Below are positions 6,316 to 64,000 of a stretch of 64,000 nt of DNA, piece after piece. The translations under genes were made by a program, and so were the position numbers. The notes under the pieces are model-generated. The model was given only the letters and a program-made list of their open reading frames with translations. It had not been told where the DNA came from and ran no database searches. Numbering within the stretch: position 1 is the stretch's first letter; each line of letters starts with the position of its first letter. This DNA comes from Fidelibacterota bacterium (GTDB lineage Bacteria; Fidelibacterota; UBA8477; JABMPR01): NCBI GenBank assembly GCA_018650795.1, contig JABIFG010000058.1:9497-73496 (forward strand), given 5' to 3'.

Positions 6316-8490
6316 TTATTCAGCAGTGAAGCTCCAGACTGGTCCTTTGATGACCTTTCCGCCAACGATGTTGTCTATTCTCCAGTAGTATGTTTTGCCT
6401 GTTTGAAGATTCCCGGGTGCAAAGATATTGTTCTTCTGTTTCCCTTTATACTCAATTGATTTGGGTGAAGCCTTGCTAACTGCCTTATTCGAATTCCCAA
6501 AGTAGATCAGGTTTGTTTCAGATTTGTAGGCTGACAGCCATATGAGATCAGTATTTTGTTTCGCCGCAGTGTTTTTATTCCTAGGAATAGGAATGCTACT
6601 GGTGGCTTCCTTTCTGCCTGGAATCCAATACTCCTTTGCTCCAAATTCATATGCACCAATATCTGGAGCGTTCCCCAGATATTTTTCCGAGCGATCTGAA
6701 ATAACCTTACCCGCGTCCACAATTTCAGCGCCTACTATCGGTCTGAAGTCCCAGTTATCAGGATCTCTTAGCTGAGTTCGGTAATCACCCTCGTTTTCAT
6801 AGGCGTTCCAGTTGTGATCTGCAATTCCGGGTACCGGTGTGAATTTTTTGCGATGGCCGGAGAGTTTACCAGCAAGGTTGTTGCGAGTTATCGTACCCTT
6901 ATTCGCCCCTCCATTTACATCAGAATCATCCAGGATGATGAGTCCATTCAAGCCCATTGCAAATGTGGTATTGTTGAAGCAGAAATGTCGCTCGCCTTTG
7001 ATCATGATGCCGCGCTCAGATTCCCACATGACGTTATTATTCATCTGTCCCCCATTCCCCCAACGTACTGGCGGAATTGGCGAATCGAACCGAGCACCGC
7101 TTTTAACCGTATTGCGGAACCAATTATTACGAATGATTGATCCTGTCTGTCCGGTGATCTTCACCTGGGTGATAGATCCGTCACTCTGTAGAAAACCTGT
7201 ATTCCACACGTGATTCAATTCTACTAACGGAATGCCACCGGCACTGATGGTTGAAGAGGCAGCGCAGGAGTGAACTGTATTTCTCCGAAAAATGTTATGC
7301 TTACCATTTAACATGATTGAAACCTGCAGGCCGGGAATACTGGATACCGAATAATCGATGTCATGAAAGAGAGAGTTTTCGACTCGATTGTGGGTACCCT
7401 CCATATAAAGTGCATGCCCATCTGTATAAGCAAATGAGCAATTCAGAATGGTACTATTTGATGCTTTTTTGGGACTCTTTTGTAGAAATACTGTGGATTC
7501 ATCATGCTGCTCATCACCAAGTAATCTCTGGGTATAGCTTGGATAAAGAAAATTACAATCTTCAAGTTGAATGTAGGTACAATTTTCAAATTTCAAGGTT
7601 GTCCCATAAAAGTCAATACCTCTAATGGTGATAAAATGACTATTAGCGAATGCTGCGGCATAGGTCTGGACTTTACCACGTAGATCTGCTTTAGGTTTTC
7701 CACCATCAGGCTGCCACAGGTAAATCGTTTTGGATTTCTTATCAAAAAACCATTCATTCTGAGAATCCAGGAAATCCAGTAATCCTTCGAGGTAGTAAAA
7801 ATGATGTTTGGGGCGGTAACCTTTGACTCTTTTAAAGGAAAATGCCTCTTCACCCTTTTTATGGGATTGAACCTGGCGTGTGGTTGAAGTGAATGAACCC
7901 ACATTAAGGATGGCCATAGCTCCTTTTATGGAAAAATCGAGGCTTTTTAGCTGATGGGGGGTTTCAGGATCATTATATAGTTTTTCTCTGGTGTCCTGCT
8001 TATGGAGCCCCCTGGCCCAGGTTTTCTTCTGATCCCAGACTGTATTATCTGAATATTGGGCATTGGGCCATCGGGCTGGAACAACCATTTCATTGTTCCA
8101 GAAGAGCTGCCACACATCCTGCTTCATTTTTAATTTATAAATGTTTCCGCTATGTTTTTTCCAACGTCCCTTGACATCAATCGTACCATCAAAAACAACT
8201 TTCTCATCGGGGTAAGCTAAAACTACCAGGGGTTTATCTTTTGAACCCTCAATGTTTTTCAGTTGATTCTCAAAGTGGTAGTTGCCCTCTCTTACAAAAC
8301 AGGTATCGCCGGGCTGCATCCCCGATAATGCTTTTTTGAGGCTTGCGAAGGGTGCCTTCATATCGCCCATATTACGATCACTACCATCCACTGCCAGAAA
8401 GACATTTTCGGCTAGGACTGGTTGTGCTAGAGCCAATATTAACAGGACTATACGGATATTGGTTATAATCATCGTATCATTTTTTTTCAT
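6316..8490 (-). CDS. DUF1565-like right-handed beta-helix protein with a C-terminal FN3-like domain (paralog family A)
   Basis: Signal peptide. NVFLAVDGSDRNMGDMKAPFASLKKAL matches the YYVSPxGSDxNxGTxxxPF type of start. Family motif DVWQLFWNNEMVVPARWPN. The C-terminal about 75 aa (YFGNS...TYYWRIDNIVGG...WSF) recur in the paralogs at 52942-55404 and 55386-57905. Confidence 0.65.
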   Translation of the reverse strand: MKKNDTMIITNIRIVLLILALAQPVLAENVFLAVDGSDRNMGDMKAPFASLKKALSGMQPGDTCFVREGNYHFENQLKNIEGSKDKPLVVLAYPDEKVVFDGTIDVKGRWKKHSGNIYKLKMKQDVWQLFWNNEMVVPARWPNAQYSDNTVWDQKKTWARGLHKQDTREKLYNDPETPHQLKSLDFSIKGAMAILNVGSFTSTTRQVQSHKKGEEAFSFKRVKGYRPKHHFYYLEGLLDFLDSQNEWFFDKKSKTIYLWQPDGGKPKADLRGKVQTYAAAFANSHFITIRGIDFYGTTLKFENCTYIQLEDCNFLYPSYTQRLLGDEQHDESTVFLQKSPKKASNSTILNCSFAYTDGHALYMEGTHNRVENSLFHDIDYSVSSIPGLQVSIMLNGKHNIFRRNTVHSCAASSTISAGGIPLVELNHVWNTGFLQSDGSITQVKITGQTGSIIRNNWFRNTVKSGARFDSPIPPVRWGNGGQMNNNVMWESERGIMIKGERHFCFNNTTFAMGLNGLIILDDSDVNGGANKGTITRNNLAGKLSGHRKKFTPVPGIADHNWNAYENEGDYRTQLRDPDNWDFRPIVGAEIVDAGKVISDRSEKYLGNAPDIGAYEFGAKEYWIPGRKEATSSIPIPRNKNTAAKQNTDLIWLSAYKSETNLIYFGNSNKAVSKASPKSIEYKGKQKNNIFAPGNLQTGKTYYWRIDNIVGGKVIKGPVWSFTAE

Positions 8491-10900
8491 TTTTCTTCCA
8501 CTGGTTGTTGAACGAATAAGATATGGACATTATAAATCGTTTTGAATCATACTCAGAAATGTTTCTTGCGAAGAAATCTGTTCGATAATCAATTTCCTTT
8601 TCATCTCTGAGTGTGTCAAACACATCGGATACTTTCATACTTAAATTCACTTTGCGATCCCACAGATAAGTCTTGAGAGAGACATCAGTGAATTGTCTGG
8701 TGGCATTACTCCCCTGCCAGGTAATACGGGGTGATTCATACTTGTGAATGATTTGAAAGTAGTGTTGCTTTTTCAGGTTCAGGTCAAGTTTGATTTTTGC
8801 CGAAGTAGTAACCTTCTGGCGTTTCTTAAGTGATTCATCCCCTTCACTCAACAGCATACTATTAAAGTGTACAATACTGCCTGATATTTTCATGAAAGTA
8901 GCAGTCTTGTAAACCCAGTTTATATCTCCTCCTATTGCTTCACCAGAGGAAAGATTATCTGGATAAATGTGGGTAATACTATCTGATACAATTTCAATCT
9001 GATTGCCAATTATATCATCGATTTCCCTGTAAAATAGTGAGCTGCTGATAGTGTGTTTTTCGTTTCTCCATATGTACTGTAATTCATAGTTATCAATTTG
9101 CTCAGGTTTCAAATAGGGGTTACCTGTTTTCAAAAAATAGGTTGAGGTATTTATGACCTGCGGATTCAACCTGTTGTAGGCTGGTGGTGATATTCTACGG
9201 GAATAACTGAATTGCAGCGTTTGCAGCGGTGTAATCATCCTGATGAATTGAAGTGAGGGCAGGACCTGATCATATCTATTATTGACACTCCCTGTATCAT
9301 TATGGACCGACTCATTGGTGATTGATTCCAGACGTGTTCCCAGGTTCAATTGGTAGTGTTCAGTTGAATAGCGATAAGAGATATAGGATCCATGCATGAT
9401 TTCGTTGTATGAAAAGGGTCCTCCCCTAAAACTATCCTGACTCCAGCCCGATTCATCCACCAACAACGAAAAATAATCATTCCGGAGTAGATTGTTGTCG
9501 GAGCGAAATTGATATCCCAGATCGATTTCATGTTGACCCAGCGCAGGTAAAGACCAATCTATTTTAATTGTTGTTTGATCGCGATCATCATCGCTATGGA
9601 GAGAGTCGCTTTTCAGATTGCCTGAGACAAACCCCTGAGGATCAAAATTCTGTTTTTGATCATTTCCATCACGCGCTGAGGCTGTCAGTGATTGAGTGAA
9701 GAGTACATTCAAATTGGATCTGGATGTTTTTGCATCAAAGTTATAGATCAGGGATATTTCATCTCGTTCCCTTAGATCTGATGATTCCTTTTCCTTCTCA
9801 GTAAATCGCTGTAGCATCTGCGTACTATCCAATCGATCTGAGTGCGTTGATCCAGTTAGATCCTTCAAGCGAATATTTATTAAATAAGTAAGCCTGAAGG
9901 CGTGTCTTTTTGAGGCTGACCATCTTGTGCCCATTCTGTATTGTCTTGTCAGACTCTGTTTATCATTTTCCCCTGTAAGATTTAAAAACCATGGGTTGTC
10001 GGAATAGGTTTCTCTCCAATACCGGGTGTCGCTTGATCGTGTAAACAGTCTATCTGAGAACTCACCAAAGGCATTAAACCCTTTCACATTGGTAGATGCA
10101 TTTGCAGATATCTGATAGTCACCGGAGTCATGATATCCAAGACGAAGTCGGCCGCTACTGCCCTTCTTTTTGTGCTTTTTGAGCTTGATATCGATAACTC
10201 CACCTGATGAAGATTCATATTTAGCAGAAGGATTAGGAATGACTTCGATGGATTGGATTGAGCCAGCTGGAATTTGAGAGAGCATATCTTCTAAATTGGT
10301 TTTGACACCATCAATATAAATGGCTGCTTTCTGACCCCGAATGGCTGCAGATTCGTCCTCATCAAAGGTAACGCTGGGGGCATTTTCTAACAGGTCTACT
10401 GCTGTCTCCCCTTCCACGGATGCAGAATCACCAACTGTGATTACAGTTTTGCCAGGCTCAAATCGAACATCGGGAGCTTGAGCGGCTGCAATTATCTCTG
10501 GACTTTCCAGGTTTGCCTGAAGCAGGTAGAGGTCCCCAAGGTCAACCAGGGAGTTTGGAATGGATATATCTTTGATTTGATGTGTTTCATAGCCGATATA
10601 TTGAATTTCAAGATCGTATGTCTCAGGTAGTAACAAATCAATCGTAAACACACCCATCTGATCTGATGTTGTACCAGTTACCAGTCCAGAATCTGAACTT
10701 TGAAATATCAAAATATTTGCACCCAGGATAGGATTGTGAGTTTCAGCATCAAGGAGTTTTCCCTTCAATATGGCATTGGACCTTGTTGATGGATTTTGTG
10801 ATAGAACCAATATAGGTATGAGAACAGTGATAAGAATACGGGTCGTGGTTCTCAAAGACAAACCGAGCTGTGAAGATTTTTGTTTAGATTGTGATACCAC
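8477..10900 (-). CDS. outer-membrane beta-barrel, TonB-dependent-receptor-like protein with an N-terminal carboxypeptidase-regulatory-like domain
   Basis: CarbopepD_reg-like region ILKGKLLDAETHNPILGANILIFQ...GVFTIDL. Plug-like region AVDLLENAPSVTFDEDESAAIRGQKAAIYIDGV...GSIQSIEVIPNPSAKYESSSGGVIDIKLK. A long barrel ends ...ISYSF, then a basic extension NNQWKKNEKK. Confidence 0.7.
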   Translation of the reverse strand: MVSQSKQKSSQLGLSLRTTTRILITVLIPILVLSQNPSTRSNAILKGKLLDAETHNPILGANILIFQSSDSGLVTGTTSDQMGVFTIDLLLPETYDLEIQYIGYETHQIKDISIPNSLVDLGDLYLLQANLESPEIIAAAQAPDVRFEPGKTVITVGDSASVEGETAVDLLENAPSVTFDEDESAAIRGQKAAIYIDGVKTNLEDMLSQIPAGSIQSIEVIPNPSAKYESSSGGVIDIKLKKHKKKGSSGRLRLGYHDSGDYQISANASTNVKGFNAFGEFSDRLFTRSSDTRYWRETYSDNPWFLNLTGENDKQSLTRQYRMGTRWSASKRHAFRLTYLINIRLKDLTGSTHSDRLDSTQMLQRFTEKEKESSDLRERDEISLIYNFDAKTSRSNLNVLFTQSLTASARDGNDQKQNFDPQGFVSGNLKSDSLHSDDDRDQTTIKIDWSLPALGQHEIDLGYQFRSDNNLLRNDYFSLLVDESGWSQDSFRGGPFSYNEIMHGSYISYRYSTEHYQLNLGTRLESITNESVHNDTGSVNNRYDQVLPSLQFIRMITPLQTLQFSYSRRISPPAYNRLNPQVINTSTYFLKTGNPYLKPEQIDNYELQYIWRNEKHTISSSLFYREIDDIIGNQIEIVSDSITHIYPDNLSSGEAIGGDINWVYKTATFMKISGSIVHFNSMLLSEGDESLKKRQKVTTSAKIKLDLNLKKQHYFQIIHKYESPRITWQGSNATRQFTDVSLKTYLWDRKVNLSMKVSDVFDTLRDEKEIDYRTDFFARNISEYDSKRFIMSISYSFNNQWKKNEKK

Positions 10901-16897: not shown

Positions 16898-18442
16898 TTA
16901 TTTCTTTTTTTTCTTAATTCTTTGCTTGTTGCTGACTTTCCACCCTCCAAGAGTGGGGCTCCACTTGCTCAGGGGTTCAAAATCAGGATCACCATAGTCT
17001 CCCCCACTATGGCTTTTCTCAGCGGAGGCTAAAAAGCGTTTCAATTCAGTTTTCAATTTTTGGGCATGGTCCGGATGATCGGCTATGATATTGTTTTCTT
17101 CATATCGATCCTCGTACAGATCGAATAGCATATCTTCTTCACCCGTATCGGAGTAGTTCGTTAGAAATTTATATCGATCATCAATCATTCCTGCGGTTGG
17201 AGAACCGTACATAGAACCTTTTCCCGACTGAAATCGAAAGGGGATTGGTTTGCTACGTTTGGATTCATCCCCAGACAGAAGCGGCATAATGTTTAGTCCA
17301 TCAAGGGCTCGGTGGTCTGGAAGATCAACTTCAAGCGTCTCCATAATGGTTGGGAAATAATCCAGTGTGGAAGCAGGTCTTTCCATGATGCTTCCCTGCT
17401 TAGCTGGACCAGCTGGCCAATGCAGAAAGGCAGGTGAGCCGACTCCCCCTGAAAAGAGGCTCCGTTTTCTACCTCTGTGTCCCCCAGTAACTCCGGGTCT
17501 ACCCTTTTCAGGACCATTATCACTGCAGAACCACAACATGGTGTCATCCAGGACTCCCAGGTTGGTAAGTTCAGTTTTTAATCTGCCGACTTGATCATCA
17601 AGTGCTGTAATGCAGCCATAATAATTCTGCTCAAGTTCTGTGTACTGAGAGTACATCGCCTGGTAGTCAGGACCGGCTTTGACGGGTGCATGTGGTGCGT
17701 GGAACCAGATCACGGTAAAAAATGGTTTCTCTGCCTCAACTGACTGATTAACAAAAGGCAGGATGCGATCCATCATGATGCGACTGTCATCACCGTTAAC
17801 GTTATCTATAACGCGCTCGCCATTGTGCCAGTACGGATTTTCTGTCGTTGCAGCTTTCTCCCCTGTTGGTCCGTAAGGATCCCAGGTGGCTACAGCATGA
17901 TGTGTGACAAAATGTTCATCGTACCCAAACCATTCTGGTAGGGCGAGATGTTTATCCCCTGAATTTTTACCGGTGTATTTGCGATTCGGGCTACCCAAAT
18001 GCCACTTCCCAAAGTGGCCGGTAGTATAGCCAGCCTGTTTGAGCATTTCAGGAAGCGTAACTTCCTGTGTTGGCAAGGCTCCCTGATTGGCTTTCCATAT
18101 CCCGTATCTAAAATAATGACGTCCGGTGAGACAGGTTGCTCGAGTTGGAGAACACACTGGAGCTCCTGAATAAAAACGGTCCAGACGAACACCTGAGTTG
18201 GCAAGATTATCCAGATGAGGTGTTTTGATAATGGTATTTCCATTCCAGCCAACATCACCCCAGCCCATATCATCTGTCATCATTAAAATTATGTTTGGGC
18301 GCTGCTTTTTTTGTGGAGATGTTATTGTGCTGGTGAGCGCAGAGCTACCACCACAGGCTACAAGACTGCCAGCCGCGATAATTCCTGCCATAAATTCTCG
18401 GCGAGTCATTGATTTGTGTTCAGTTTTTAGATGGCGTGACAT
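16898..18442 (-). CDS. S1-family sulfatase, Tat-secreted, with a C-terminal poly-lysine tail
   Basis: Tat motif MTRREFMAGIIAAG; MMTDDMGWGD...CSPTRATCLTGRHY; ends ...SNKQRIKKKKK. Alternative start at M12 (position 18409). Confidence 0.88.
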   Translation of the reverse strand: MSRHLKTEHKSMTRREFMAGIIAAGSLVACGGSSALTSTITSPQKKQRPNIILMMTDDMGWGDVGWNGNTIIKTPHLDNLANSGVRLDRFYSGAPVCSPTRATCLTGRHYFRYGIWKANQGALPTQEVTLPEMLKQAGYTTGHFGKWHLGSPNRKYTGKNSGDKHLALPEWFGYDEHFVTHHAVATWDPYGPTGEKAATTENPYWHNGERVIDNVNGDDSRIMMDRILPFVNQSVEAEKPFFTVIWFHAPHAPVKAGPDYQAMYSQYTELEQNYYGCITALDDQVGRLKTELTNLGVLDDTMLWFCSDNGPEKGRPGVTGGHRGRKRSLFSGGVGSPAFLHWPAGPAKQGSIMERPASTLDYFPTIMETLEVDLPDHRALDGLNIMPLLSGDESKRSKPIPFRFQSGKGSMYGSPTAGMIDDRYKFLTNYSDTGEEDMLFDLYEDRYEENNIIADHPDHAQKLKTELKRFLASAEKSHSGGDYGDPDFEPLSKWSPTLGGWKVSNKQRIKKKKK

Positions 18443-18534: not shown

Positions 18535-18650
18535 GGTAAGGAGACTGAGCTTGTCGAAGTCGGTTGGTTATCACCCTATGGTAATGGACATTTCGTCCTT
18601 CGACTCCGCTCAGTATGACAGCTCAATGTCCGAGGAATCTTATAGCTTCA
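18535..18650. repeat. Copy of the dispersed intergenic element (CTGAGCTTGTCGAAG ... CGACTCCGCTCAGTATGAC)
   Basis: Shares the CTGAGCTYGTCGAAGT core and a CTCAG(G/T)ATGAC end with the copies at 6156, 38886 and 57978. Confidence 0.4.
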
Positions 18651-20157
18651 GGGTATATCCTAGCATAATGCGATCGTTTCTATCAGTGATATAATGCATG
18701 CTGGTTGCGAAGTAATCCAGATATTTTAGTTGTTGCCAGCTATAAGCAATATCAAAAGTACCCCAGAGCATGTCGATGGCTATCCCACCTGAATAGATAT
18801 CCTGTTCCGGTCCTCGATCGATAAATGGCGATCGCCAGCCATGAAATTCACGGCTACCTGTTTGATAACCACCCGCAAGCTTTACCCTGCTATGGATTTT
18901 GTAAACAATTCCTAATTTCATGGTCAATACGTCAACCCAGGGTTGGTAACCATCTAGTGTTTGACTGGTATCACCCAGGCTGATTTTTGCTTCCGATAAC
19001 GGATTCCAAATCAAATCGAAGTAAACCTCCAATTGATCTTTTGGTTTTACAGCTATGCCAAAACTGGATTTTACCGGTAACGCGATATCCATTGATATTC
19101 CGCTTGTATCCAGCACAAAAGCTGAATCATCAGGTTGAATAAACCAATCTGCATCAGAATATTTACGAGTCATCGTGGCAGGTAAATCAAACTGAAATCC
19201 TGCCGAAAAATCAGGGGTATGAAACTGTAGTGACAAATCTAGAATATTTGCCGACCAATCACTATCCGCAGTATTAACTTTAGCAGCAGTTGTGTCATCA
19301 TAATAAAAGGCAAAACCACCATTGGGACGCCACTTATAATCTCCATAGTGTGCCCATGATATATTGTCATTTGTTGTGCCGGACAGTGATTTCATGCCAA
19401 TACCAACATTCGCCCATTCAAAAACTTCGACAGCCAGTGCTGCCTGAAGCACAGCCATATCGCCTTTCCGCTCTCGGACATATGTAAACTGGTGCAAATC
19501 CAGGGTATCGCCATCAGTATTCAGACCTGGATCAGCCCAATCCCCGATAACAGGATCGAGATAGGCTTCATTCTGATCATAATCGTATATATTCTGGTTT
19601 CGATAAGCCAGGGCTAATGCAATCGTCCGTCCACCAAAAATCGCAAGGGGTAAACCTAGACTCACATTTGAAATACCTGAGAGTTCCAACTTCTGTTCCC
19701 AGTCCCGTGCTTTATAATCCCAGAAATTCAAACCAGTATCATTCACCTTGATATCATCAGGTGTGAGCAAATTAAATAGGGAATCCACCCAAATACCGTT
19801 GTTACTATGTACAGGTTGGTAAGTTTTATCTATAATACGCAGAATAAGGGGGTCAACCCTATCTTCCATCATGACCATATTTTCAAATTGATTTCGATTC
19901 GAGATATGACCATTAAATTGAAATTGAATTCCTTCCAAACCGACTAAACCGGCTGGATTACGAAAGATATCATTCAGAGTTCCATCACCTGCCACTCCCG
20001 CGCCAGCTTTTGCCAGAGTCCAGGGGGTTTCGGTTTCAAGGTTTGCCATCCCATGCAAGAGAATCACCTCTCCATTCCCCTGCCCCAAAAGCGAGAGAGG
20101 GAAAAAGGCAATGCTTGCCAGAGTTAATATTACAGTGATTGATTTAAATTTATTCAT
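18640..20157 (-). CDS. long PorV/PorQ-like (FadL-like) T9SS-associated outer-membrane beta-barrel, 505 aa
   Basis: Signal peptide. N-terminal block AKAGAGVAGDGTLNDIFRNPAGLVGLEGIQFQF shares the xxA(R/K)xxxxGxxxxxxxxxNPAGL signature with the shorter PorV-like proteins and with its 514-aa paralog at 44802-46346. Ends in alternating barrel-type strands ...LGYTLKL. Confidence 0.5.
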   Translation of the reverse strand: MNKFKSITVILTLASIAFFPLSLLGQGNGEVILLHGMANLETETPWTLAKAGAGVAGDGTLNDIFRNPAGLVGLEGIQFQFNGHISNRNQFENMVMMEDRVDPLILRIIDKTYQPVHSNNGIWVDSLFNLLTPDDIKVNDTGLNFWDYKARDWEQKLELSGISNVSLGLPLAIFGGRTIALALAYRNQNIYDYDQNEAYLDPVIGDWADPGLNTDGDTLDLHQFTYVRERKGDMAVLQAALAVEVFEWANVGIGMKSLSGTTNDNISWAHYGDYKWRPNGGFAFYYDDTTAAKVNTADSDWSANILDLSLQFHTPDFSAGFQFDLPATMTRKYSDADWFIQPDDSAFVLDTSGISMDIALPVKSSFGIAVKPKDQLEVYFDLIWNPLSEAKISLGDTSQTLDGYQPWVDVLTMKLGIVYKIHSRVKLAGGYQTGSREFHGWRSPFIDRGPEQDIYSGGIAIDMLWGTFDIAYSWQQLKYLDYFATSMHYITDRNDRIMLGYTLKL

Positions 20158-20170
20158 ACTTATATCCAGC

Positions 20171-21163
20171 CTATCTCATCACATAGCTCAGACTAAAACG
20201 CTGAACGTATTGCAAGAAGTCATCATAATCATTATATGCATAATCGAATTTAAAATTTCCCAGGGCTACCCCAGCTCCCAGACTGAGTCCCTCAGTGAGA
20301 TAATTGATTTTATATCCTCCCCGCAAGAACAGTCTTTCTTTCAAAGCCCATTCTGCACCCACGTTATACTGTTGATCATAATCCCTGGGGGCTAGCAGAT
20401 CTGCTGCCAGAGTGAGTCTTTGAAACGAATTTGTCCCCATCAAGCCACCTTCTGGACCAAAGCATTCAGTGGCGAATCCTAAAATAAGTACCTGAGGTGC
20501 TGAAAATCCCTTCTCTTCAAATACGATGTCATCTCCAAAATGACGAACAACTGCACTGGTTCGTAGTGTTCTCCAGCCGGAGCGATAGAGCACACCACCA
20601 TCAAAAAGGATTTGATCGTCCTTGGAATAAATGAGGTCTTCCTGCACAAATTTGGCAGTGATACCAAAACTGAATTTATCTGTTACAGCTCGGGCATAAG
20701 TCAGACCCAACATGAGATGATTAGGAGAAAAGTAATCTTGAGAAGTGGCAAATGCCTGGTATTCCGCCAGACTGGAGACATTGGTTGTATGGAGTATTTT
20801 ACCAATATCATTGTATTGATACTGTATGGCAAACGTGCCTAACCGGGTTCCGAAGAGTGCAACACCTCCCATATTTCGGACATCTGCAAAATAGTTATAC
20901 ATAGACATAGACAATTCATATTTCCCTGCGTCAGTTAGCCCGGCAGGATTGTAATATACGCCATCAGCATTATCAGCCACTGCCGTAAAAGCTTCGCCCA
21001 TACCGTTGGCTCTGGCATCCGGTTTTACCTTCAGGAATTGAAATGCAGTTGTCCCCTCTTTAGTCGTCTGAGCATCAATTGTTGAGAGTGCTAACAGCAG
21101 ACACAAGGGCAAGACTATTGATTTGATTCTCTTCAATTTCATCATTCTTTCTCCTTGGGTCAC
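20171..21163 (-). CDS. PorV-like T9SS-associated outer-membrane beta-barrel (PorV/PorQ family), about 325 aa
   Basis: TAFQFLKVKPDARANGMGEAFTAVADNADGVYYNPAGLTD is the characteristic PorV-type N-terminal motif. C-terminal aromatic-rich beta-strands ...QRFSLSYVMR. Paralog at 46348-47433. Likely start MMKLKRIK (21145). Confidence 0.55.
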   Translation of the reverse strand: MTQGERMMKLKRIKSIVLPLCLLLALSTIDAQTTKEGTTAFQFLKVKPDARANGMGEAFTAVADNADGVYYNPAGLTDAGKYELSMSMYNYFADVRNMGGVALFGTRLGTFAIQYQYNDIGKILHTTNVSSLAEYQAFATSQDYFSPNHLMLGLTYARAVTDKFSFGITAKFVQEDLIYSKDDQILFDGGVLYRSGWRTLRTSAVVRHFGDDIVFEEKGFSAPQVLILGFATECFGPEGGLMGTNSFQRLTLAADLLAPRDYDQQYNVGAEWALKERLFLRGGYKINYLTEGLSLGAGVALGNFKFDYAYNDYDDFLQYVQRFSLSYVMR

Positions 21164-21165
21164 AG

Positions 21166-23445
21166 CTAGCGAATAATTACAAACTTTGTCATGGTCTGCT
21201 GTCCATCTGGTGTCTGAATGGCAACAAAATACACACCTGGAGCCAGGAGCATGTTATTCTCATTCACGAGATTAAAAGTGAGCGATCCACTCTCAGAGTT
21301 TTCATGCTCAATGCTTTGTACTTTCTGACCTGCAAAACTATAGACACGAATTGAGCATTTTTCAGGAAGTCCAAAAATACTGACTGCATTTGCAAGTGAG
21401 ACATTTTGAAAGCCACTTTCCAGAATAAAGGGATTTGGGACAATAAAAATGTTCTCAAGATCCCCTTCGGGACCAATATCCCTGCGATGTTGAGTCATAT
21501 TTGTTTTACCACTCTGAAAACCATTTACATCCCGCGTAGTAACTGAATAAAAGGCCACATCTGAAAAGGCGAAATCGATGTCATCATCTATATATTCGTA
21601 GATATTTTCAGAATTGACCTCCCCCGCTGAAATGGCGACTAATCGTTTCCAGGGACCAAGACGATTAAAACTTCTCCAGATATAAAATGAGTCCAAGGCA
21701 GCAGAGGAATGAGTAAAATCTTCAACTGCTCTTGACCAGGTAATATGGATATTGGCATCCTCATCGTTACTCACCTTAAGACCTGGTGCAGGAACTGGAA
21801 CATAGACATCATACACGCCATCTGGCTCCGTCCAATCCGGCCAACAGACGACTGAATCCTCCGCCCAGAGTGAATCATGTTCGATGTCCCATCCGGTATA
21901 GGCTTTCCAAGCCTCTCGAGCAACGTCCTGAACTGAGATAACCCCAGTTTCTGCATTGACATAATCGGGATATCCAAAAGTATCCAAATATCTGAAGGTG
22001 CTATCTCCTACTGTGAGTTCAGCATTAATATCAGGCGCTACACCCCAAAGGTCTGATTTCTGACCACCTCCAAATACCCTTTTACCTGGATCTGAACCAT
22101 ATCCAACGACCTGGGCAAAACTGAAATGAAGAATATCACCCCTGTTAATAGTATAGGGACCACAAACAAATGACGAGGCAGGCGCTTCTGCACTTTTAGG
22201 TTTATACTTGGGTCTTCCAACCCAAAACATTGGATGCTCATTTGGATCCGGTGCGTCAAGTTCTGGAAATTTACCTTGGGCCCGGCTATGTGTCTTATAA
22301 TGTGGTTTGTTGATGAGCGATGTAGAAACAAACCAACCAGCATTCTGGATAATCCCCCAGGGCTGCTTGATAGTTAAATTCTCATCCCATTCAAAGTCAG
22401 CTGCATGTTGAGCATATTCCATTGTTGTCAGATGAAAGGTCGTATCATTTGTATCAAGAACTGTCAGATGCTCCCTATCCCAATGAAGCGCTGTATGCCC
22501 CGCAGCCTGTGGTGCCAGCAATCCACCACCATTCAAACCAGTAGACGAAAACTCCCAAAAAAGATCCTCATCCGGTTCAGGATGATATGGCTTGGAGTGA
22601 TCCTGCTGGGTGCTAATGCTCTGGCAATAAAACATGGTGTAGTCTGTATCGAAACTGTTGTATACATCACCCCTGAAAATTCCTGGTTTCCAGTACCAGG
22701 AACCAAAGGTTCTCTGAAAGCTCATCATGTTAGGTGGTATAGCCGTATGGAATGCAAACAAGGCATCTACATAGGTATCTACTGAGTCCTGCTCTATAGT
22801 GTTTTCATCATAGTCCGTATTGCCCGTAAATTCCAGTTCATACTCATGGAAAATGATATCATCCAGCATTGGATAGCTGTATTGACGAGTGACCCTCGTA
22901 ACTGTCATACCCACACTGGTAGCAAATCGAGTGTGAATGAGCTGTTCAGCCTCATTTGGATCGAAATCAGGATTGAGACTACCATCTTCAAGCAGAGGAT
23001 AGTTGGTTTCTTTCCAGAATTCAAGTGGCCAGCACCAAACTTCATATTCCATCTCTGGACCGCCCGAGCCCACCATTCCAGCGAATGAAAAGTGTTTTTG
23101 ATCAACTCCCAGTTTTCCTGGATGGTTCACACCAATATGGATACCACCTCCCAGACCGTTGTGTTGACCATAATATTCAATATTATCAATAACAGTCCTT
23201 GACCAGGCTGGCCATTCGGTCATAGGTGTATTGGTTGATTCAATTCCATTATTTTTGTAGGGGGCTACGAAGACTCCCGTGTTATAAAAAGTCTCATGGA
23301 GGGTACCGCGATCATGGACCAAACGCTCACGTTGAGCCCATAAGCCAGAAGTAATACTCATCAGCAATATGACATATAATACCAATTTTAAGCGATTTGA
23401 CATAGCAGTCTCAGTTGAACTTTCCTGATATATATAGTTCATCAT
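21166..23445 (-). CDS. large secreted protein of unknown function with a type-A T9SS CTD (unrecognised family; paralog of 47430-49793)
   Basis: Signal (MSNRLKLVLYVILLMSITSGLWAQ, probable start 23403). Conserved blocks shared with the paralog: EWPxxSxTVxxxIxYxGQHNxxGGGIHIGxNxxxK, HFSFxGxVGxGGPE and GGLLAPQAAG. CTD IFIVPNPF...GVYFVAIQT...KFVIIR. Confidence 0.6.
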   Translation of the reverse strand: MMNYIYQESSTETAMSNRLKLVLYVILLMSITSGLWAQRERLVHDRGTLHETFYNTGVFVAPYKNNGIESTNTPMTEWPAWSRTVIDNIEYYGQHNGLGGGIHIGVNHPGKLGVDQKHFSFAGMVGSGGPEMEYEVWCWPLEFWKETNYPLLEDGSLNPDFDPNEAEQLIHTRFATSVGMTVTRVTRQYSYPMLDDIIFHEYELEFTGNTDYDENTIEQDSVDTYVDALFAFHTAIPPNMMSFQRTFGSWYWKPGIFRGDVYNSFDTDYTMFYCQSISTQQDHSKPYHPEPDEDLFWEFSSTGLNGGGLLAPQAAGHTALHWDREHLTVLDTNDTTFHLTTMEYAQHAADFEWDENLTIKQPWGIIQNAGWFVSTSLINKPHYKTHSRAQGKFPELDAPDPNEHPMFWVGRPKYKPKSAEAPASSFVCGPYTINRGDILHFSFAQVVGYGSDPGKRVFGGGQKSDLWGVAPDINAELTVGDSTFRYLDTFGYPDYVNAETGVISVQDVAREAWKAYTGWDIEHDSLWAEDSVVCWPDWTEPDGVYDVYVPVPAPGLKVSNDEDANIHITWSRAVEDFTHSSAALDSFYIWRSFNRLGPWKRLVAISAGEVNSENIYEYIDDDIDFAFSDVAFYSVTTRDVNGFQSGKTNMTQHRRDIGPEGDLENIFIVPNPFILESGFQNVSLANAVSIFGLPEKCSIRVYSFAGQKVQSIEHENSESGSLTFNLVNENNMLLAPGVYFVAIQTPDGQQTMTKFVIIR

Positions 23446-23454
23446 AGTAGTCCC

Positions 23455-44801: not shown

Positions 44802-46346
44802 TTAAAAACCATATTTCAGACCTATCAGTACAGTACTACTATGCTGCGATACAAAATTAAGATAGGCATAAGCAGGTTCTAAATACTTTATATGCTGGTA
44901 TTCATAAGCTATGTCTAACTGAACCTTTATGATGGAGATGGATACCCCCGTTGTAAGGCTGGTGGATCGAGGACCTTCAGATTTATCTGCAACTCCCCAG
45001 GGTACATATGCCAGGGGTGTTGAACGATAACCACCCATCAGGGTCAAAAAATCTGCTAGATCATAAGATAGACCTAATTGATAATTCATTACATCCGCCC
45101 ATTGATATTGAGTCGAGTCAGAGACAATATCCCCATAGCCAAAATCTGCATATTGAAATGTCGCAGACTCGTATGGATTGAAGCCCATGTCAAAGGCGAT
45201 ACTCAAATCTTCTGTTGCCTGAATATTTACCCCAACTGTATAAGAAGCAGGTATATCAGCATAATCCTGGCCACTAAGTGGGATTGATGAGACTGAATCA
45301 GGGGCAGAGACATGCCGGGTATAGATCCAGTCCCTTTTAAGTCGATAGGGCAACTTGACCTGAAAACCGAAGTCGATAGTTTCATAATCCAGGATCAAAC
45401 CCAGATCCATATTCAGACCACTAAAACTTGACGTCCCACTTGTCCGGGTCACTAGTGAATCATGTGAAAAAACAAAACTTTTTGACCATAGATCCAGATC
45501 CGCTATTTTATCGAGAACTAACTCATCCTCAGTATCACCAGACAGACTATTCACACCCAATCCAAGTTGAATGACTTCGCCAGGACTATAACCGAGGGCA
45601 AATCGTAGAGAATTGACTACCCCTTGACGACTCCTGGTGAATTGTGACCATACCACATGGGCTGTATCATCACTGTTATCAAAAGTATAGTGCATATACG
45701 GTCGGTGTGCCAGGAAGGGATCAGTATGACTGTCATTTCGATCGTAGTCATCCACATTGTACTGACGTGAAAAGGATCCGCCCAGGACAATATCCTGTTC
45801 AAATAGCGTGATCGGTAAAACCGCGGAGATGGCGTTTAGGGGCAATCTTTTGGAGCGCTCCTCGATCCAGCTCGCAGCACTACGCTCGTAATGATAAACA
45901 CCCTGCTCAGGGATGCCAATGTCTTCAATATCCATCAGTAACCAGAGTGAATCGTCTGTAACACCATATTGTCCAGGATCAATTTCAAAACGATAGTCCA
46001 AAATCATACTTAGCATGGGTGTGGATTCTTGATCTCCCCACATTTTATTTTCCCATAGGGTGGTCTCGGTCGCTTTAGCAGAGAATGAAATTTGAAATTC
46101 CTCAATGCCATTCAAACCGGCTGGATTAAAATAAATCGATTCAATTTCACCTGATTTTGCTGCATAAGCATTTCCAGTCGCAAGCCCTCTAACGCTCAGG
46201 GGACTGATCTGCCCCAGACCCTGAAATCCGAGATCCGCACCATTCCCCTGTGCATAAACGCTGGTGACACACATCATCCAAAGCAAGCCTGCGCTGAATA
46301 AAACTGGAAGTCCACTTCTTTTCATTTTGTATCCTAAAGAATCCAT
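44802..46346 (-). CDS. long PorV/PorQ-like (FadL-like) T9SS-associated outer-membrane beta-barrel, ~507-514 aa (paralog of 18640-20157)
   Basis: SVRGLATGNAYAAKSGEIESIYFNPAGLNGIEEFQISF; C-terminal ...STVLIGLKYGF (terminal Phe). Probable start MKRSGLPVLFSAGLLWMMC... at 46325. Confidence 0.5.
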   Translation of the reverse strand: MDSLGYKMKRSGLPVLFSAGLLWMMCVTSVYAQGNGADLGFQGLGQISPLSVRGLATGNAYAAKSGEIESIYFNPAGLNGIEEFQISFSAKATETTLWENKMWGDQESTPMLSMILDYRFEIDPGQYGVTDDSLWLLMDIEDIGIPEQGVYHYERSAASWIEERSKRLPLNAISAVLPITLFEQDIVLGGSFSRQYNVDDYDRNDSHTDPFLAHRPYMHYTFDNSDDTAHVVWSQFTRSRQGVVNSLRFALGYSPGEVIQLGLGVNSLSGDTEDELVLDKIADLDLWSKSFVFSHDSLVTRTSGTSSFSGLNMDLGLILDYETIDFGFQVKLPYRLKRDWIYTRHVSAPDSVSSIPLSGQDYADIPASYTVGVNIQATEDLSIAFDMGFNPYESATFQYADFGYGDIVSDSTQYQWADVMNYQLGLSYDLADFLTLMGGYRSTPLAYVPWGVADKSEGPRSTSLTTGVSISIIKVQLDIAYEYQHIKYLEPAYAYLNFVSQHSSTVLIGLKYGF

Positions 46347-46347
46347 T

Positions 46348-49793: not shown

Positions 49794-49827
49794 GATGTAT
49801 CTTACCCTTCTACAGCAACTGATCGCT

Positions 49828-59894: not shown

Positions 59895-61283
59895 TTAATG
59901 CTTCTTTATTTCTTTGGCCATTTCAGCTAAAACTGATCCAAAACGTTTGCGTCTCACTTCAGCCGTTGAAGCTAGATCCCCTACCGGCAGTGGCGATTTT
60001 TCGTCTGGATCGGTAATGACGTCATAGAAATTGCCATTGTTATAGAGTTTCCAACGTTCATCGCGAACCCATCTTGTAAATTCAGGCTTATCTGATTTCT
60101 TCTTTTTGGGTTTTTTATTTTTCTTATTCTTCTTTTTCTTCTTTTCGATCCCGCTGTCTTCAACGGCATATTTTCCTTTTTCAAAATGACAGAAAATATA
60201 TTCCTTGGGGTGACCCTGCTTGCCCTTGAGCTGAGGTACAAAGCTGACACCATCCACGATGAAATCTTTTGAAATTTTAGCTCCACCAATTTCTGCTACA
60301 GTTGGGAGAATATCTGAAAAATCAATGAGATCGGTATTGAGCTTATTGGCAGGTGCAGTCCCCTCCCAATAGGCAATTAAGGGTACATGAGTACCGGCAT
60401 CAATACTGCGGCCCTTTCCTCCACGGATCTTTTTACCATTAAATTTGGATGTGACCTTCTTATCTGTCCCATTATCACCTGTGAACAGGAGAAGTGTATC
60501 ATCTGCAATCCCAAGTTCCTCCAGATGATCAACCATTTTTCCCACGATTTTATCGGTATAGGCTACCATATCGGGGAAGTATTTGGTGTTGCGCTTGGAT
60601 TTTGAATCCCCTTCCTTGCTATCCGGTGTGGGGACATGGGGGCCATGTGTCAAAGCCATGGGATAATAGATGAAGAAGGGGTTTTTCTTATTCCGGGTCA
60701 TAAAATCCATGAGGAATTGTGAATAGATATCGGGGCCATATTTCCCATCAGTATCCTTAAGCACTTTCCCATTTTGGGTAATATTTGGATTCCAATAACG
60801 CGAGCCCTTGGATTCACGATCTACCTGCCAGAGACAGTATTCATCAAAGCCAGAATCTTCGGGTCGTGTGCCAGGAAATTCTTTGCCACGTCCTGAAAGC
60901 TGCCATTTGCCAGCGATAGCCGTAGCATACCCTGCAGTACCCATAATGTGTCCGAAGGTCTTCTCGCCCTTGTTGAGGGTTTCGAAAGCCACATAATTGC
61001 GGGCATTAGTTTTCCCAGTCATGATTTTCACCCTGGTGGGCGTGCAAACCGGTTGTGAGTGACAGTTCGTAAACCTGATCCCGCGTTTGGCCAGATCATC
61101 AATTCGTGGAGTAGAATATGATTGTCCACCATTGGCTGTTACGCATTCATAGCCAAAATCATCAGGCATGATGAGGATAATATTCGGTTTCTTTTTACCA
61201 AACGCTGCCTGAGCCAGCCCGCTTGGTATTGATAATGCCAGAGTACCTATTCCAGCGGATTTAAGAAATTCCCGTCGCTTCAT
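59895..61283 (-). CDS. S1-family sulfatase, Tat-secreted, with an internal lysine-rich insert
   Basis: MKRREFLKSAGIGTLALS; MPDDFGYE...CTPTRVKIMTGK; an insert EKKKKKNKKNKKPKKKKSDKPE lies near the C-terminus. Confidence 0.88.
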   Translation of the reverse strand: MKRREFLKSAGIGTLALSIPSGLAQAAFGKKKPNIILIMPDDFGYECVTANGGQSYSTPRIDDLAKRGIRFTNCHSQPVCTPTRVKIMTGKTNARNYVAFETLNKGEKTFGHIMGTAGYATAIAGKWQLSGRGKEFPGTRPEDSGFDEYCLWQVDRESKGSRYWNPNITQNGKVLKDTDGKYGPDIYSQFLMDFMTRNKKNPFFIYYPMALTHGPHVPTPDSKEGDSKSKRNTKYFPDMVAYTDKIVGKMVDHLEELGIADDTLLLFTGDNGTDKKVTSKFNGKKIRGGKGRSIDAGTHVPLIAYWEGTAPANKLNTDLIDFSDILPTVAEIGGAKISKDFIVDGVSFVPQLKGKQGHPKEYIFCHFEKGKYAVEDSGIEKKKKKNKKNKKPKKKKSDKPEFTRWVRDERWKLYNNGNFYDVITDPDEKSPLPVGDLASTAEVRRKRFGSVLAEMAKEIKKH

Positions 61284-61284
61284 T

Positions 61285-62802
61285 TTATTTCACCAGTTCA
61301 CATTTTAGAACAAAGGCATGTTCACAGGGTTTGGACTGGGGAAAAGTGACTTTCAACTCGGTCTCACTGAGAAACCAATCATTGATGGGTCCACTGCCCA
61401 GCATTTCAATTCTATTGATTTCTGTGGAATTTTTCTGTAATTCGCTCCAGATATCTTTTACCGTAGCTACTCCATTCTCAGGCCAATCCATGACGATAAT
61501 ATATAAGTCGTTATCTCTAGTAGTGTATCGAATATCACCTGCTGTGAATTCACCTTTACGGCGATTATGTCCACCACCCTCAACAAAAGTGGGTCCCTCA
61601 CCATAGCTAGTCCAGGGTCTGGTCCCATAAATGGCCTCGCCATTCATTTCAAGCCATTTGCCAATATCCAGGAGGCGTTTTTTTGATTCATCATCGATTT
61701 TGCCGTGCCGATCGGGACCTACATTCAACAGCATACTTCCATTTTTGCTGACAACGTCAATCAATTCATCAATGAGCCAGTTGGATGTGAAGTATTTGGG
61801 ATTTTTAATATATCCCCAGGAATTTGACATGACTGAGTTGTCAGTTAGCCAAGCCTCTGGACTCAATTCAGCCATTGAGCCTCTTTCATTATCCTTGATG
61901 CCAACACCTTCTGGCAGATTGTCCTTTTTGTAGGTAATGCCCACTTCTTTACCGGCAGCTTGAGCCTTGTTATAATAGTTGTGGATAAAGTCCTTCTTAT
62001 AGGGTTCAAAGGCTCCCTTCCCCCAGGCTCCGTCAAACCAGAGTAAATCAGGATCGTATTTTTCAATCACCTCTTCAATCTTGTGCTGCCAGTCCAGCAG
62101 ATATTCCTCGCTGTGAGGAGCTCTTTTTTCGTGGATAGGACCATACATACTTCCTACATAAGCATATTGGGGATCACCGGTATCATAACTGGAGTCATGA
62201 TCATAAAGGGACCAGTTACGGGCATGGTGAAAGGAGGTGACAAAATGCATGGAGCGTTTACGGATGGCGATTTCCAATTCCCCAACAATATCCCGCTTGG
62301 GACCCATTTCTTTGGCATCCCATTTGGTCAGATCACTATCCCACATGACAAACCCATCATGATGGACTGCTACGGGACCGGCAAAACGAGCTCCAGATTT
62401 TTGAAAAAGATCTGCCCATTCCTCAGCATCAAATTGAGCACCATCAAACATGGGTAGAAAATCCTTATAACCAAATTCAGACGGATGTCCCCAGGTCTTG
62501 GTGTGATGACCAAAAAAATCTTTCTTGCGGAAACCGTCTTTCTCATACATGCCATGGGGATACCATTCGGTATAGTAGGCTGGTACACTATATGGACCCC
62601 AATGGGTATAGATTCCAAATTTTGCATCCCTAAACCATTCAGGGGTCTGATGTTGCTTCAAGGATTCCCAGTCAGCAGTAAATGGTAAAGTAATTTCCTG
62701 TTTAGCCTCAGGCGTGATTTCAGTTGCAACCCGCTCATTAGCACAGCCATAAAGACATCCCATAATTATGGGAATCAGCAGCAATTCCTTATATTGCATC
62801 AT
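61285..62802 (-). CDS. alpha-L-fucosidase, GH29
   Basis: Lipoprotein-type signal ...IMGCLYGCAN; KFGIYTHWGPYSV, HHDGFVMWDSDL, LLNVGPDRHG. Confidence 0.88.
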   Translation of the reverse strand: MMQYKELLLIPIIMGCLYGCANERVATEITPEAKQEITLPFTADWESLKQHQTPEWFRDAKFGIYTHWGPYSVPAYYTEWYPHGMYEKDGFRKKDFFGHHTKTWGHPSEFGYKDFLPMFDGAQFDAEEWADLFQKSGARFAGPVAVHHDGFVMWDSDLTKWDAKEMGPKRDIVGELEIAIRKRSMHFVTSFHHARNWSLYDHDSSYDTGDPQYAYVGSMYGPIHEKRAPHSEEYLLDWQHKIEEVIEKYDPDLLWFDGAWGKGAFEPYKKDFIHNYYNKAQAAGKEVGITYKKDNLPEGVGIKDNERGSMAELSPEAWLTDNSVMSNSWGYIKNPKYFTSNWLIDELIDVVSKNGSMLLNVGPDRHGKIDDESKKRLLDIGKWLEMNGEAIYGTRPWTSYGEGPTFVEGGGHNRRKGEFTAGDIRYTTRDNDLYIIVMDWPENGVATVKDIWSELQKNSTEINRIEMLGSGPINDWFLSETELKVTFPQSKPCEHAFVLKCELVK

Positions 62803-64000
62803 TTCTTTTTCCTACTCTTCTTTATACTCAATTTGCTTTTTGCTAGTGCTTCTCGATATTTCTTAAATTCCTTTTTAGGAATAAGTCGGATTTTTTCATC
62901 CCATGACACGTGACGATCCATCAACACAGCCCATTCTGGATAGTTATTGCGCTGCACACAATTTTTCTTCCAGCGTTCAACTTCTTGATCGTAATATTTC
63001 TGCATCTGTCGCAAGGTTTTCTGCATTTCAGGCTTATCAACCAGGTTATGCATCTCTAAGGTATCTTCTTTGAGATCATACAATTCCTCTGCTGCCTGCA
63101 TCCCTTCACCAGCAAAAAACCAGTTGATGTACTTATATCTTTCTGTCACAACACCCAGTTCGTGTGTGGGTATAATCCCCCAGACATTCATGATAGGTAG
63201 TGCTTCGCGAAGCTTGTGTTTGGGATTTTCAACCATGGATCGCATGCTGATACCATCAACTGATTTTGGAATTTCCAGCTCAGCGTAGTCCATTATAGTC
63301 GGCATGATGTCTACACTCCCGGTTACTCCCTGACAGCGATATCCTTTGCCTGAATTTCGGTGTCGTGGATCCAGTATGACCATGGGAGCGCGGCTGGCTT
63401 CTTCATAGGGTAAAACCTTGCCACCAAAACCATGAGCACCACAGCTATAGCCATTATCGGTTGTAAAAATGATAACCGTATTATCGGCAATGCCACGTGC
63501 TTCCAGCTTGTCTCTGATCATCTTGACAGCGACATCCACCCCATACACCAATTGATTATATTTGCGCATGGTATCCTGATAGCGCTCACCCCTGAAGTCC
63601 TTATACTGCAGGTACTGCCGGCCACTTTTCGCCTGTTGCGGTAAATGCTCAGCGTTTTTGGTACCATGATTTTTGCGCTCATCCCAAACCGTATCAGCAT
63701 AAACGTGGTCATAGCGGGAATCTGGCGATCTGGGTGAATGGGGAGCTTTGAAACTCACAGAAAGACAAAATGGCTTGTCCTGCTCCATGGCCGTATCAAT
63801 AAAATCTTCAGATGCAGCCCCCAGGGCTCCACTAACATGAGGATACTGTTCTGCGTACATGGCGATGTGTTCATTCTCTTCTGTTTCATACTCACCCTGT
63901 CCGGGCCAACCATGCCAGACATCAAAAGAATCCATGGGCATTTTTTCATTGCTATGGTATCCAGATTTATCCGGTTTATCCGTGACTGCATACCCAAATT
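62799..64000 (-). CDS. S1-family sulfatase; the N-terminal part runs off the window end
   Basis: Sulfatase C-terminal core ...IIFTTDNGYSCGAHGFGGKVLPYEEASRAPMVILDP...DIMPTI; lysine-rich tail ...KSKLSIKKSRKKK. The frame is open to position 64000, and the C-x-P-x-R region must lie beyond the window. Confidence 0.8.
   Translation of the reverse strand, partial: FGYAVTDKPDKSGYHSNEKMPMDSFDVWHGWPGQGEYETEENEHIAMYAEQYPHVSGALGAASEDFIDTAMEQDKPFCLSVSFKAPHSPRSPDSRYDHVYADTVWDERKNHGTKNAEHLPQQAKSGRQYLQYKDFRGERYQDTMRKYNQLVYGVDVAVKMIRDKLEARGIADNTVIIFTTDNGYSCGAHGFGGKVLPYEEASRAPMVILDPRHRNSGKGYRCQGVTGSVDIMPTIMDYAELEIPKSVDGISMRSMVENPKHKLREALPIMNVWGIIPTHELGVVTERYKYINWFFAGEGMQAAEELYDLKEDTLEMHNLVDKPEMQKTLRQMQKYYDQEVERWKKNCVQRNNYPEWAVLMDRHVSWDEKIRLIPKKEFKKYREALAKSKLSIKKSRKKK

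Follow-up and report, generated by a model that had tools for sequence, protein, structure and literature searches.

Lysine-rich tails and a lysine-rich loop on S1 sulfatases of a bacterial polysaccharide-degradation cluster: sulfatase-specific appendages and putative tethers for sulfated glycans

Three sulfatases encoded in a 64,000-nucleotide stretch of DNA from a Fidelibacterota bacterium (contig JABIFG010000058.1, positions 9,497 to 73,496; hereafter the window) carry strongly basic, lysine-rich tracts, at the C-terminus in two of them and inside the chain in the third. These tracts are no artefact. They keep their composition in orthologues and are a sulfatase-specific trait that recurs across phyla; they contain few hydrophobic residues, and structural models show them as disordered or weakly helical. 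We tentatively read these tails and the loop, at somewhat less than even confidence, as disordered polycationic segments that would tether the enzymes to sulfated glycans through non-specific electrostatic contacts, a role suggested by their restriction to sulfatases, by the conservation of their charge and by analogy with other sulfatases. Judged by sequence, the enzymes themselves are ordinary S1 sulfatases, and the new element is the recurrent, sulfatase-specific polybasic appendage; a full-text literature search, with subscription journals largely outside its reach, returned no description of basic tails on bacterial sulfatases. Fucoidan and other sulfated polysaccharides of algae are degraded slowly and are relevant to carbon storage in the sea, and sulfatases act as gatekeepers of their breakdown. 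The three enzymes and their tracts are located in the window as follows:

16898..18442, minus strand: S1 sulfatase 1, 514 residues, with a twin-arginine translocation (TAT)-type signal TRREFM, a possible lipobox LVAC, the formylglycine (FGly) motif CSPTR at residues 97-101 and the metal-site Asp-Asp pair at 57-58
16901..16939, minus strand: polybasic tail KVSNKQRIKKKKK of sulfatase 1, which follows the ...TGxW end conserved in the family
59895..61283, minus strand: S1 sulfatase 2, 462 residues, with a TAT-type signal KRREFL, the FGly motif CTPTR at residues 80-84 and the Asp-Asp pair at 41-42
60084..60149, minus strand: lysine-rich segment (IEKKKKKNKKNKKPKKKKSDKP) of sulfatase 2, inside a longer loop of low model confidence
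62799..64000, minus strand: S1 sulfatase 3, its reading frame open at the window edge; the full protein has 527 residues (P0241), with the FGly motif CMPSR from residue 78, the Asp-Asp pair at 38-39 and 6HR5 as its nearest solved relative
62802..62876, minus strand: basic C-terminal extension KKEFKKYREALAKSKLSIKKSRKKK of sulfatase 3

The first-pass annotation of this DNA, made from the letters alone, had called all three enzymes S1 sulfatases, and the assignment holds. All match PF00884 (E-values of 4e-56, 2e-45 and 5e-21, the last obtained with the truncated reading frame of sulfatase 3), each has a C-x-P-x-R motif, an Asp-Asp metal site and a twin-arginine-type signal peptide, and in alignments of homologues the columns of the FGly motif are invariant or nearly so, while the metal pair is invariant. 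In this line, a fold search with the model of sulfatase 2 returned many S1 structures with a probability of 1.00. On these grounds the three proteins are S1-type enzymes with predicted sulfatase activity. The tracts were also found where they had been described. Sulfatase 1 ends in …NKQRIKKKKK (full end GGWKVSNKQRIKKKKK, stop codon at 16898-16900) and sulfatase 3 in ...KSKLSIKKSRKKK, whereas the insert of sulfatase 2, EKKKKKNKKNKKPKKKKSDKPE, spans residues 379-400; its DNA corresponds to window positions 60084-60149, which is pyrimidine-rich on the plus strand and accounts for the polypyrimidine run that had been placed at about 60090-60160. The AlphaFold2 (AF2) model of sulfatase 2 is otherwise confident (mean of 90 for the predicted local distance difference test), with values dropping to 51-57 over residues 371-400, in a loop lying between two beta strands of the C-terminal subdomain. 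In the model of P0241, residues 503-526 are helical, with falling confidence.

The description of the tracts as homopolymeric at the DNA level was right for tail 1, which is encoded by AAG AAA AAA AAG AAA TAA and contains a run of eight A, and wrong for the other two: the longest A run is six in the insert, where AAG and AAA codons are interspersed, and five in tail 3, so that neither contains a real homopolymer. The A8 run is the one feature that could favour an artefactual origin, in which homopolymer errors during sequencing or assembly create frameshifts and these in turn the basic tracts. Against this stand the short A runs of the insert and tail 3 and the fact that the other frames beyond the A8 run stop quickly. 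Support for the tracts, a point raised with the original observation, is abundant in independent assemblies. The identical 462-residue protein, insert included, is indexed in 229 blocks of the assembly collection, and all three tracts are repeated exactly in cluster members from JGI, ENA, Logan and NCBI, comprising both metagenome-assembled genomes (MAGs) and assemblies; moreover, similar tails occur in the cultured isolates Pontiella, Pelagicoccus, Labilibacter, Thalassotalea and Lentisphaera. For practical purposes the artefact explanation is refuted.

A sister species, represented by a MAG labelled 'FCB group'/Neomarinimicrobiota (loci L001 and L005) with the same gene order as the window, keeps lysine-rich tracts in the orthologues of all three sulfatases. 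The syntenic orthologue of sulfatase 1 (82% identity) ends in NRQRNKKKKNN, encoded by AAG AAG AAA AAG, which breaks the A run and retains the lysines. The orthologue of sulfatase 2 (400 of 462 residues identical) has the loop GKKKDKKKNKKVKKKKSEKPE, a second allele of this loop reads EKKKKKNKKEKKSKKKKKDKPE, and the C-terminus of the sulfatase 3 orthologue is KSKLVKKKSKTSRKK. In these comparisons the tracts hold their composition and length as their individual residues change, as is usual for constrained disordered segments. Absence from orthologues, which the first-pass annotation had named as evidence against its observation, is thus contradicted by these genes. The sister genome continues past the end of the window, and there (L005 1020-2744) it encodes a further TAT-signal sulfatase of 574 residues ending in ...EKPEKLKKSKKSKK; this is a fourth sulfatase with a basic tract, and the lineage therefore has at least four.

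Within the window, tracts are found on three of the five sulfatases and on none of the 26 other large open reading frames (ORFs) (hypergeometric p = 10/4495 = 0.002, calculated by hand). For a wider view we used 80 comparison loci, each encoding a relative of sulfatase 3 and coming from one genome per species; the tail counts cover 81 related loci plus the window, with non-overlapping ORFs and with sulfatases recognized by profiles built for the three families. We counted a sulfatase or other ORF as tailed if any stretch of 12 residues within its last 30 contained seven or more K/R. In these counts, which take no account of shared ancestry, 41 of the 233 sulfatases are tailed in comparison with 6 of the 573 other ORFs (p = 1e-17), a difference that persists when the seed family is removed (21/158 versus the same unfiltered 6/573; p = 3e-10) and that is absolute when sulfatases are set against conserved non-sulfatase ORFs, i.e., those with a homologue in another locus (41/233 versus 0/294; p = 3e-16). 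Tails are likewise absent from all 193 conserved non-sulfatase ORFs with a signal-peptide-like start. Among the 107 conserved neighbours scanned, 38 are GH29 fucosidases. The 3/5 versus 0/26 of the window together with the 41/233 versus 0/294 of the wider set place the pattern beyond chance.

Tailed sulfatases fall into at least eight of 40 clusters (40% identity) and into seven phyla (Bacteroidota, Marinimicrobia, Planctomycetota, Verrucomicrobiota, Kiritimatiellota, Lentisphaerota and Gammaproteobacteria). Tails from different clusters cannot be aligned with one another, and their distribution therefore requires either repeated gains or maintenance over long periods. The tailed loci span a GC content of 0.32-0.62, and the GC-rich ones encode lysine as AAG and use more arginine, which argues that the tails are not a by-product of A-rich DNA; judged from these sequences, it is the positive charge that is maintained, at the level of the protein. 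Inside the individual families the distribution is uneven. A basic tail beyond the ...TGxW end is present in 16 of 120 homologues of sulfatase 1 (threshold 7), including members from Phycisphaerae, Planctomycetota, Labilibacter and Pelagicoccus, and a few other homologues have a type IX secretion system (T9SS) domain at the site of the tail. In the family of sulfatase 3 basic tails are the norm, counted in 38 of 120 homologues with the cut-off of seven K/R and in 73 when it is relaxed to six. They are often 20-40 residues long (e.g., KKGKKNKDGKKNKKNKNKKNKKNKNKE), and the cultured Pontiella, Pelagicoccus, Lentisphaera and Thalassotalea are among the carriers; a KRAAKAAARAKRK-like motif recurs in 15 of the 120 homologues and a KKAERAAARAKK-like one in seven. 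A few non-marine members of this family (Solibacteraceae, Schlesneria and a soil Pirellulaceae) are untailed, a sample too small for any inference about habitat. As for sulfatase 2, the corresponding site is occupied by a hydrophilic loop of mildly basic character in relatives at 53-60% identity, and more distant ones have no such loop; a lysine-saturated version was absent from all homologues up to 60% identical and is retained by the orthologues and alleles from Marinimicrobia.

In the tails of 22 of the 120 sulfatase 3 homologues (P0261-P0303) we also noted an Ala-rich basic motif, SPEKRAAKAAARAKRKAEQ or NPKKAERAAARAKK, a case in which sequence and not composition alone is conserved; one of its carriers is Pontiella sulfatireligans.

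Such tails could also grow neutrally, through slippage in A-rich DNA or loss of a stop codon followed by read-through into A-rich spacers, leaving K-rich ends that are tolerated and have no function. The lack of alignment between families, a length varying from 5 to about 40 residues and the patchy distribution would all fit, and one instance of stop-codon loss was seen: in P0538, a variant of the sulfatase 1 orthologue of L001 found in one assembly, the protein is 11 residues longer and its tail runs on as ...KKKKNNQSPNQEIEEMK, reaching the start of the next gene. Neutral growth would nevertheless be expected to affect the 294 neighbours that share the same genomes and base composition, none of which is tailed. 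In addition, richness in lysine outlasts the substitutions between species and alleles at near-constant length, tails persist in genomes of 55-62% GC, and the KRAAKAAARAKRK motif is conserved across the 15 homologues mentioned above. Taken together, these observations lead us to consider a purely neutral origin rather improbable.

Physically, the tracts are about 5-45 residues long overall and 10-25 in the window, mostly located at the extreme C-terminus, and the tails consist of 46-58% K with 3-4% hydrophobic and 6-12% acidic (D+E) residues. Several established roles for a protein end were considered and discarded. No sorting model of Pfam or NCBIfam covers the tails. An amphipathic membrane helix was rejected in view of a hydrophobic moment of 0.22-0.37 and a negative mean hydrophobicity. 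A PEP-CTERM/exosortase signal combines a motif, a hydrophobic helix and a basic cluster, and no NCBIfam match, PEP motif or hydrophobic helix was found. The T9SS Por_Secre_tail domain was absent from sulfatases 1-3 in a Pfam search and present in many other ORFs of the window. Neither the route of export nor the type of anchor goes with the tail: a TAT-like motif occurs in 11 of 41 tailed and 27 of 192 untailed sulfatases (p = 0.06, not significant), and a lipobox-like motif in 12 of 41 and 43 of 192, respectively, with no significant association. The FGly motif is of the Cys type in 38 of the 41 tailed and 172 of the 192 untailed sulfatases.

These properties bear on a second suggestion of the first-pass annotation, that the tails anchor the enzymes to lipopolysaccharide (LPS) or the outer membrane. 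In its general form, a cationic tail would attach the enzyme, in the periplasm or at the surface, to LPS, vesicles or anionic lipids, preventing its loss or keeping it near the uptake machinery. Polycationic peptides do bind anionic membranes, and C-terminal amphipathic helices anchor periplasmic enzymes such as PBP5; the predicted helicity of the sulfatase 3 tail, together with the cell-surface retention mediated by the basic domain of the human Sulf enzymes, would agree with such a device. A general retention device should, however, extend past sulfatases, and none of the 193 conserved neighbours with signal-peptide-like starts has a tail. The tails contain almost no hydrophobic residues, the sulfatase 3 helix has a low hydrophobic moment, and sulfatase 1 already has a possible lipoprotein anchor of its own. 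The anchoring claim is thus weakened, and we regard envelope retention as unlikely.

The restriction to sulfatases would be accounted for by a role in their biogenesis, in which basic residues close to the C-terminus delay translation or export and give the cytoplasmic maturase time to convert Cys into formylglycine, or aids handling of the protein before export. Basic nascent chains and runs of AAA codons are known to slow ribosomes, and the A8 run of tail 1 would suit this idea. It is at odds with the position of the FGly motif, a site some 400 residues ahead of the tail that emerges from the ribosome well before the tail is translated, and with the use of AAG and CGN codons in GC-rich genomes. 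Moreover, tails are present in aerobic as well as anaerobic lineages, whose maturases differ (formylglycine-generating enzyme, FGE, and anaerobic sulfatase-maturating enzyme, anSME), and they show no significant association with the TAT-type motif. We hold a role in maturation to be quite improbable.

A role for the nucleic acid instead of the protein, with the A-rich 3' end serving the downstream gene as a ribosome-binding, unstructured or slippery site and the lysines arising as a by-product, seems to us very improbable. It draws on three features of the window. The last codons of sulfatase 3 double as a Shine-Dalgarno-like region (AGGAAAAAGAAATGA) of the downstream GH29 gene, whose ATG overlaps the sulfatase stop codon; tail 1 contains the heptamer A_AAA_AAG (window 16898-16920), a known -1 slippery site; and the end of the gene for a beta-barrel protein (8477-10900) overlaps the start of the next gene by 14 nucleotides. 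A ribosome-binding function is plausible just for the last few codons of sulfatase 3. Tails of 20-40 residues far exceed any such site, GC-rich genomes are tailed too, and the 34-nucleotide spacer after tail 1 has a GAGGAAA site of its own. The insert of sulfatase 2, for its part, is internal to its gene. With regard to the heptamer, the -1 frame would end at a TGA overlapping the ATG of the downstream fucosidase (16863), and as the orthologue of sulfatase 1 lacks the heptamer we discarded a programmed frameshift; the slippery sequence is probably fortuitous.

The tentative reading of the tracts as electrostatic tethers, which is the substrate-tethering role first proposed for them, relies on their exclusive presence on sulfatases, on the conservation of charge at the protein level, including in GC-rich genomes, and on two precedents, the hydrophilic domain of Sulf1/2 and a loop of the sulfatase S1_8B; the binding itself we infer. 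Mechanistically, the tracts would be flexible extensions with a strong positive charge, carried by the C-terminal subdomain of exported S1 (formylglycine) sulfatases and comparable, in reduced form, to the hydrophilic domain of human Sulf1/2. Their ligands would be highly sulfated glycans, in this cluster most likely fucose-containing sulfated polysaccharides or the oligosaccharides derived from them. Such a tether would raise the local concentration of substrate and allow the enzyme to stay on, or to travel along, the sulfated chain. Since the ligand would be the very sulfate ester that the enzyme removes, the grip should weaken as desulfation proceeds, which would make the tether self-releasing. 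We suggest that sulfatases are tailed and the neighbouring fucosidases are not because the ligand of the tether is what a sulfatase destroys.

Several points weigh against this proposal. A simple benefit of sticking to the substrate would not predict that tails are missing from fucosidases and from the remaining enzymes exposed to the same polyanionic glycans. The ionic strength of seawater screens charge interactions, and the tails of the window are themselves short, with 5-7 basic residues. The patchy occurrence within each family indicates that the tail is not essential. Finally, there was no sign that the tails compensate the charge of the folded body, as the net charge in the loci set does not differ between tailed and untailed sulfatases (-0.99 versus -0.91 per 100 residues; p = 0.74); a weak effect (p = 0.047) was seen in just one family with five tailed members, and charge compensation was discarded as an explanation.

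In a broader and somewhat less probable version of the tether proposal, the tracts would form a widespread module of bacterial carbohydrate sulfatases that was gained independently many times. This module would be a minimal 'polyanion-binding domain' that senses the density of sulfate, retains the enzyme on chains rich in sulfate and lets it go upon desulfation, a bacterial counterpart of the Sulf1/2 hydrophilic domain that would affect the speed at which recalcitrant fucoidan-type carbon is turned over in the sea. If the tails are indeed charge tethers, they would be an overlooked determinant of the efficiency of sulfatases on polymers, easily lost from view because constructs for crystallography and assays are often trimmed, and simple to engineer onto enzymes that tailor bioactive sulfated glycans. 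The finding can be tested directly by comparing tailed with tail-less enzymes, and the rule that it provides can be examined in entire catalogues of sulfatases.

All 31 large ORFs of the window lie on the minus strand, and together they constitute a polysaccharide-degradation cluster, whose substrate, to judge by gene content, is most likely a fucose-rich sulfated glycan. MAGs of 'Candidatus Marinimicrobia/Neomarinimicrobiota' are the recorded source of the exact 462- and 527-residue sulfatases. The content of the cluster and one further basic extension can be listed as:

Cluster content: five S1 sulfatases, five GH29 alpha-L-fucosidases, and beta-helix and GH141-like proteins
Further cluster content: many ORFs with a type IX secretion C-terminal domain, and TonB-dependent receptors
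8480..8509, minus strand: extension NNQWKKNEKK past the last strand of a PF14905/TonB-type barrel

The last of these belongs to the barrel protein encoded at 8477-10900, which matches PF14905 with an E-value of 1e-58 over residues 396-795. Its basic C-terminal end in KKNEKK (...SYSFNNQWKKNEKK*) had been correctly noticed and had been grouped with the sulfatase tails, a grouping that we abandon. Most of the 150 representatives of the PF14905 family have a K/R/Q-rich stretch after ...YK(I/F)NNYK, which makes the extension of this barrel a short form of a family trait and a separate matter from the sulfatases; the sister species has NNKWKKNDKK. Across the family (P0361-P0510), the extension consists of a basic K/R/Q cluster and, in most cases, of an acidic, Gly-rich segment after it that terminates in Phe or another aromatic residue, e.g., ...YKINNYKQKRERPRDDSG...GGDDF, and the barrel of the window and its nearest relatives have the basic part alone.

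Other features of the cluster and of related loci deserve mention. Across phyla (loci L005-L084), genes of the sulfatase 3 family are associated with those of GH29 fucosidases, and in the window and L005 the sulfatase 3-type gene and a GH29 gene overlap or abut. One GH29 fucosidase ORF (651-2294) has a listed TTG start that overlaps the upstream gene by 89 nucleotides, and its true start probably lies further downstream. A four-gene cassette is present twice (window 18640-26379 and 44802-52746), in the order TonB-dependent receptor with CarboxypepD_reg, a protein of about 760-790 residues, a PorV-like protein and a FadL/TodX-like barrel. The second protein of the cassette has no Pfam match and its C-terminal residues resemble those of the T9SS-domain proteins of the window. 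The first copy (18640-26379) has a syntenic counterpart in the sister species (L001), and the cassette may be an uptake module of Marinimicrobia that operates without SusD. Several TAT-signal sulfatases, in turn, show a run of lysines between the signal peptide and the first beta strand, as seen in sulfatase 2 (AAFGKKKPNI, window 61190-61200), in P0241 (GKKKKRPNIV, residues 24-29) and in L017 (AKDKKKKRKPNV), whereas flavobacterial homologues with Sec-type signals (…SSFAQERPNIIF) have no lysine run after the signal peptide. This run may be a Sec-avoidance feature or a second basic patch.

Among known systems, the C-terminal signals of T9SS and PEP-CTERM proteins share with the tails their position at the end of exported proteins, and some homologues of sulfatases 1 and 3 have PF18962 in place of a tail. 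PEP-CTERM signals also end in a basic cluster, an example of which is found in locus L054, but the sulfatase tails have no beta-sandwich domain, PEP motif or hydrophobic helix. Short runs of Lys/Arg are also used by eukaryotic proteins to stay, by charge, on sulfated glycosaminoglycans, as in the Cardin-Weintraub motifs and the tail of extracellular superoxide dismutase (EC-SOD). Those heparin-binding clusters act in eukaryotes at physiological salt, whereas the tracts described here are on degradative bacterial enzymes at marine salt. The nearest solved S1 enzymes, the S1_19 and S1_16 carrageenan sulfatases (6BIA, 6B0J, 6PSM and 9FO1) and the sulfatase module of 6HR5, share the fold and the catalytic motifs. 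In the fold search they are only 20-27% identical to the sulfatase 2 model. The crystallised chains align up to the folded core alone, and 6BIA shows a short stretch and no Lys-rich insert at the site of the insertion.

A parallel for the loop of sulfatase 2 is provided by the lambda-carrageenan sulfatase S1_8B, which has a loop of about 40 residues (~380-420) by the active site that is disordered without ligand, becomes ordered on a lambda-carrageenan tetrasaccharide and uses Y389 and K393 to contact the sulfated oligosaccharide at subsites +1 and +2 (PMC12549532). The loop of sulfatase 2, at residues ~371-402, is likewise disordered in the model. S1_8B belongs to another subfamily and its loop is not called Lys-rich in that publication, and as its chain did not appear by name among the PDB matches, the two loops are compared by residue numbers and disorder alone. 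A further precedent comes from the human extracellular endosulfatases Sulf1 and Sulf2, whose hydrophilic domain is highly basic and of low complexity, with 12 consecutive basic residues (PMC3890690). That domain binds the sulfated polymer, is dispensable for small substrates yet required on heparan sulfate and for retention at the cell surface, and has been proposed to direct processive desulfation and retention (PMC3890690). It occupies a large share of an enzyme of 870-875 residues, is inserted after the catalytic region and before the C-terminal one, and contains many acidic residues as well, in contrast with the bacterial tracts of 5-45 residues, mostly placed at the extreme C-terminus and with few acidic residues. 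A Pfam search of the bacterial sulfatases gave PF00884, PF16347 and a weak PF01663 alone, with no sign of homology to the Sulf domain, and the resemblance would be functional at most: in both cases, a basic segment of low complexity is carried by a formylglycine sulfatase.

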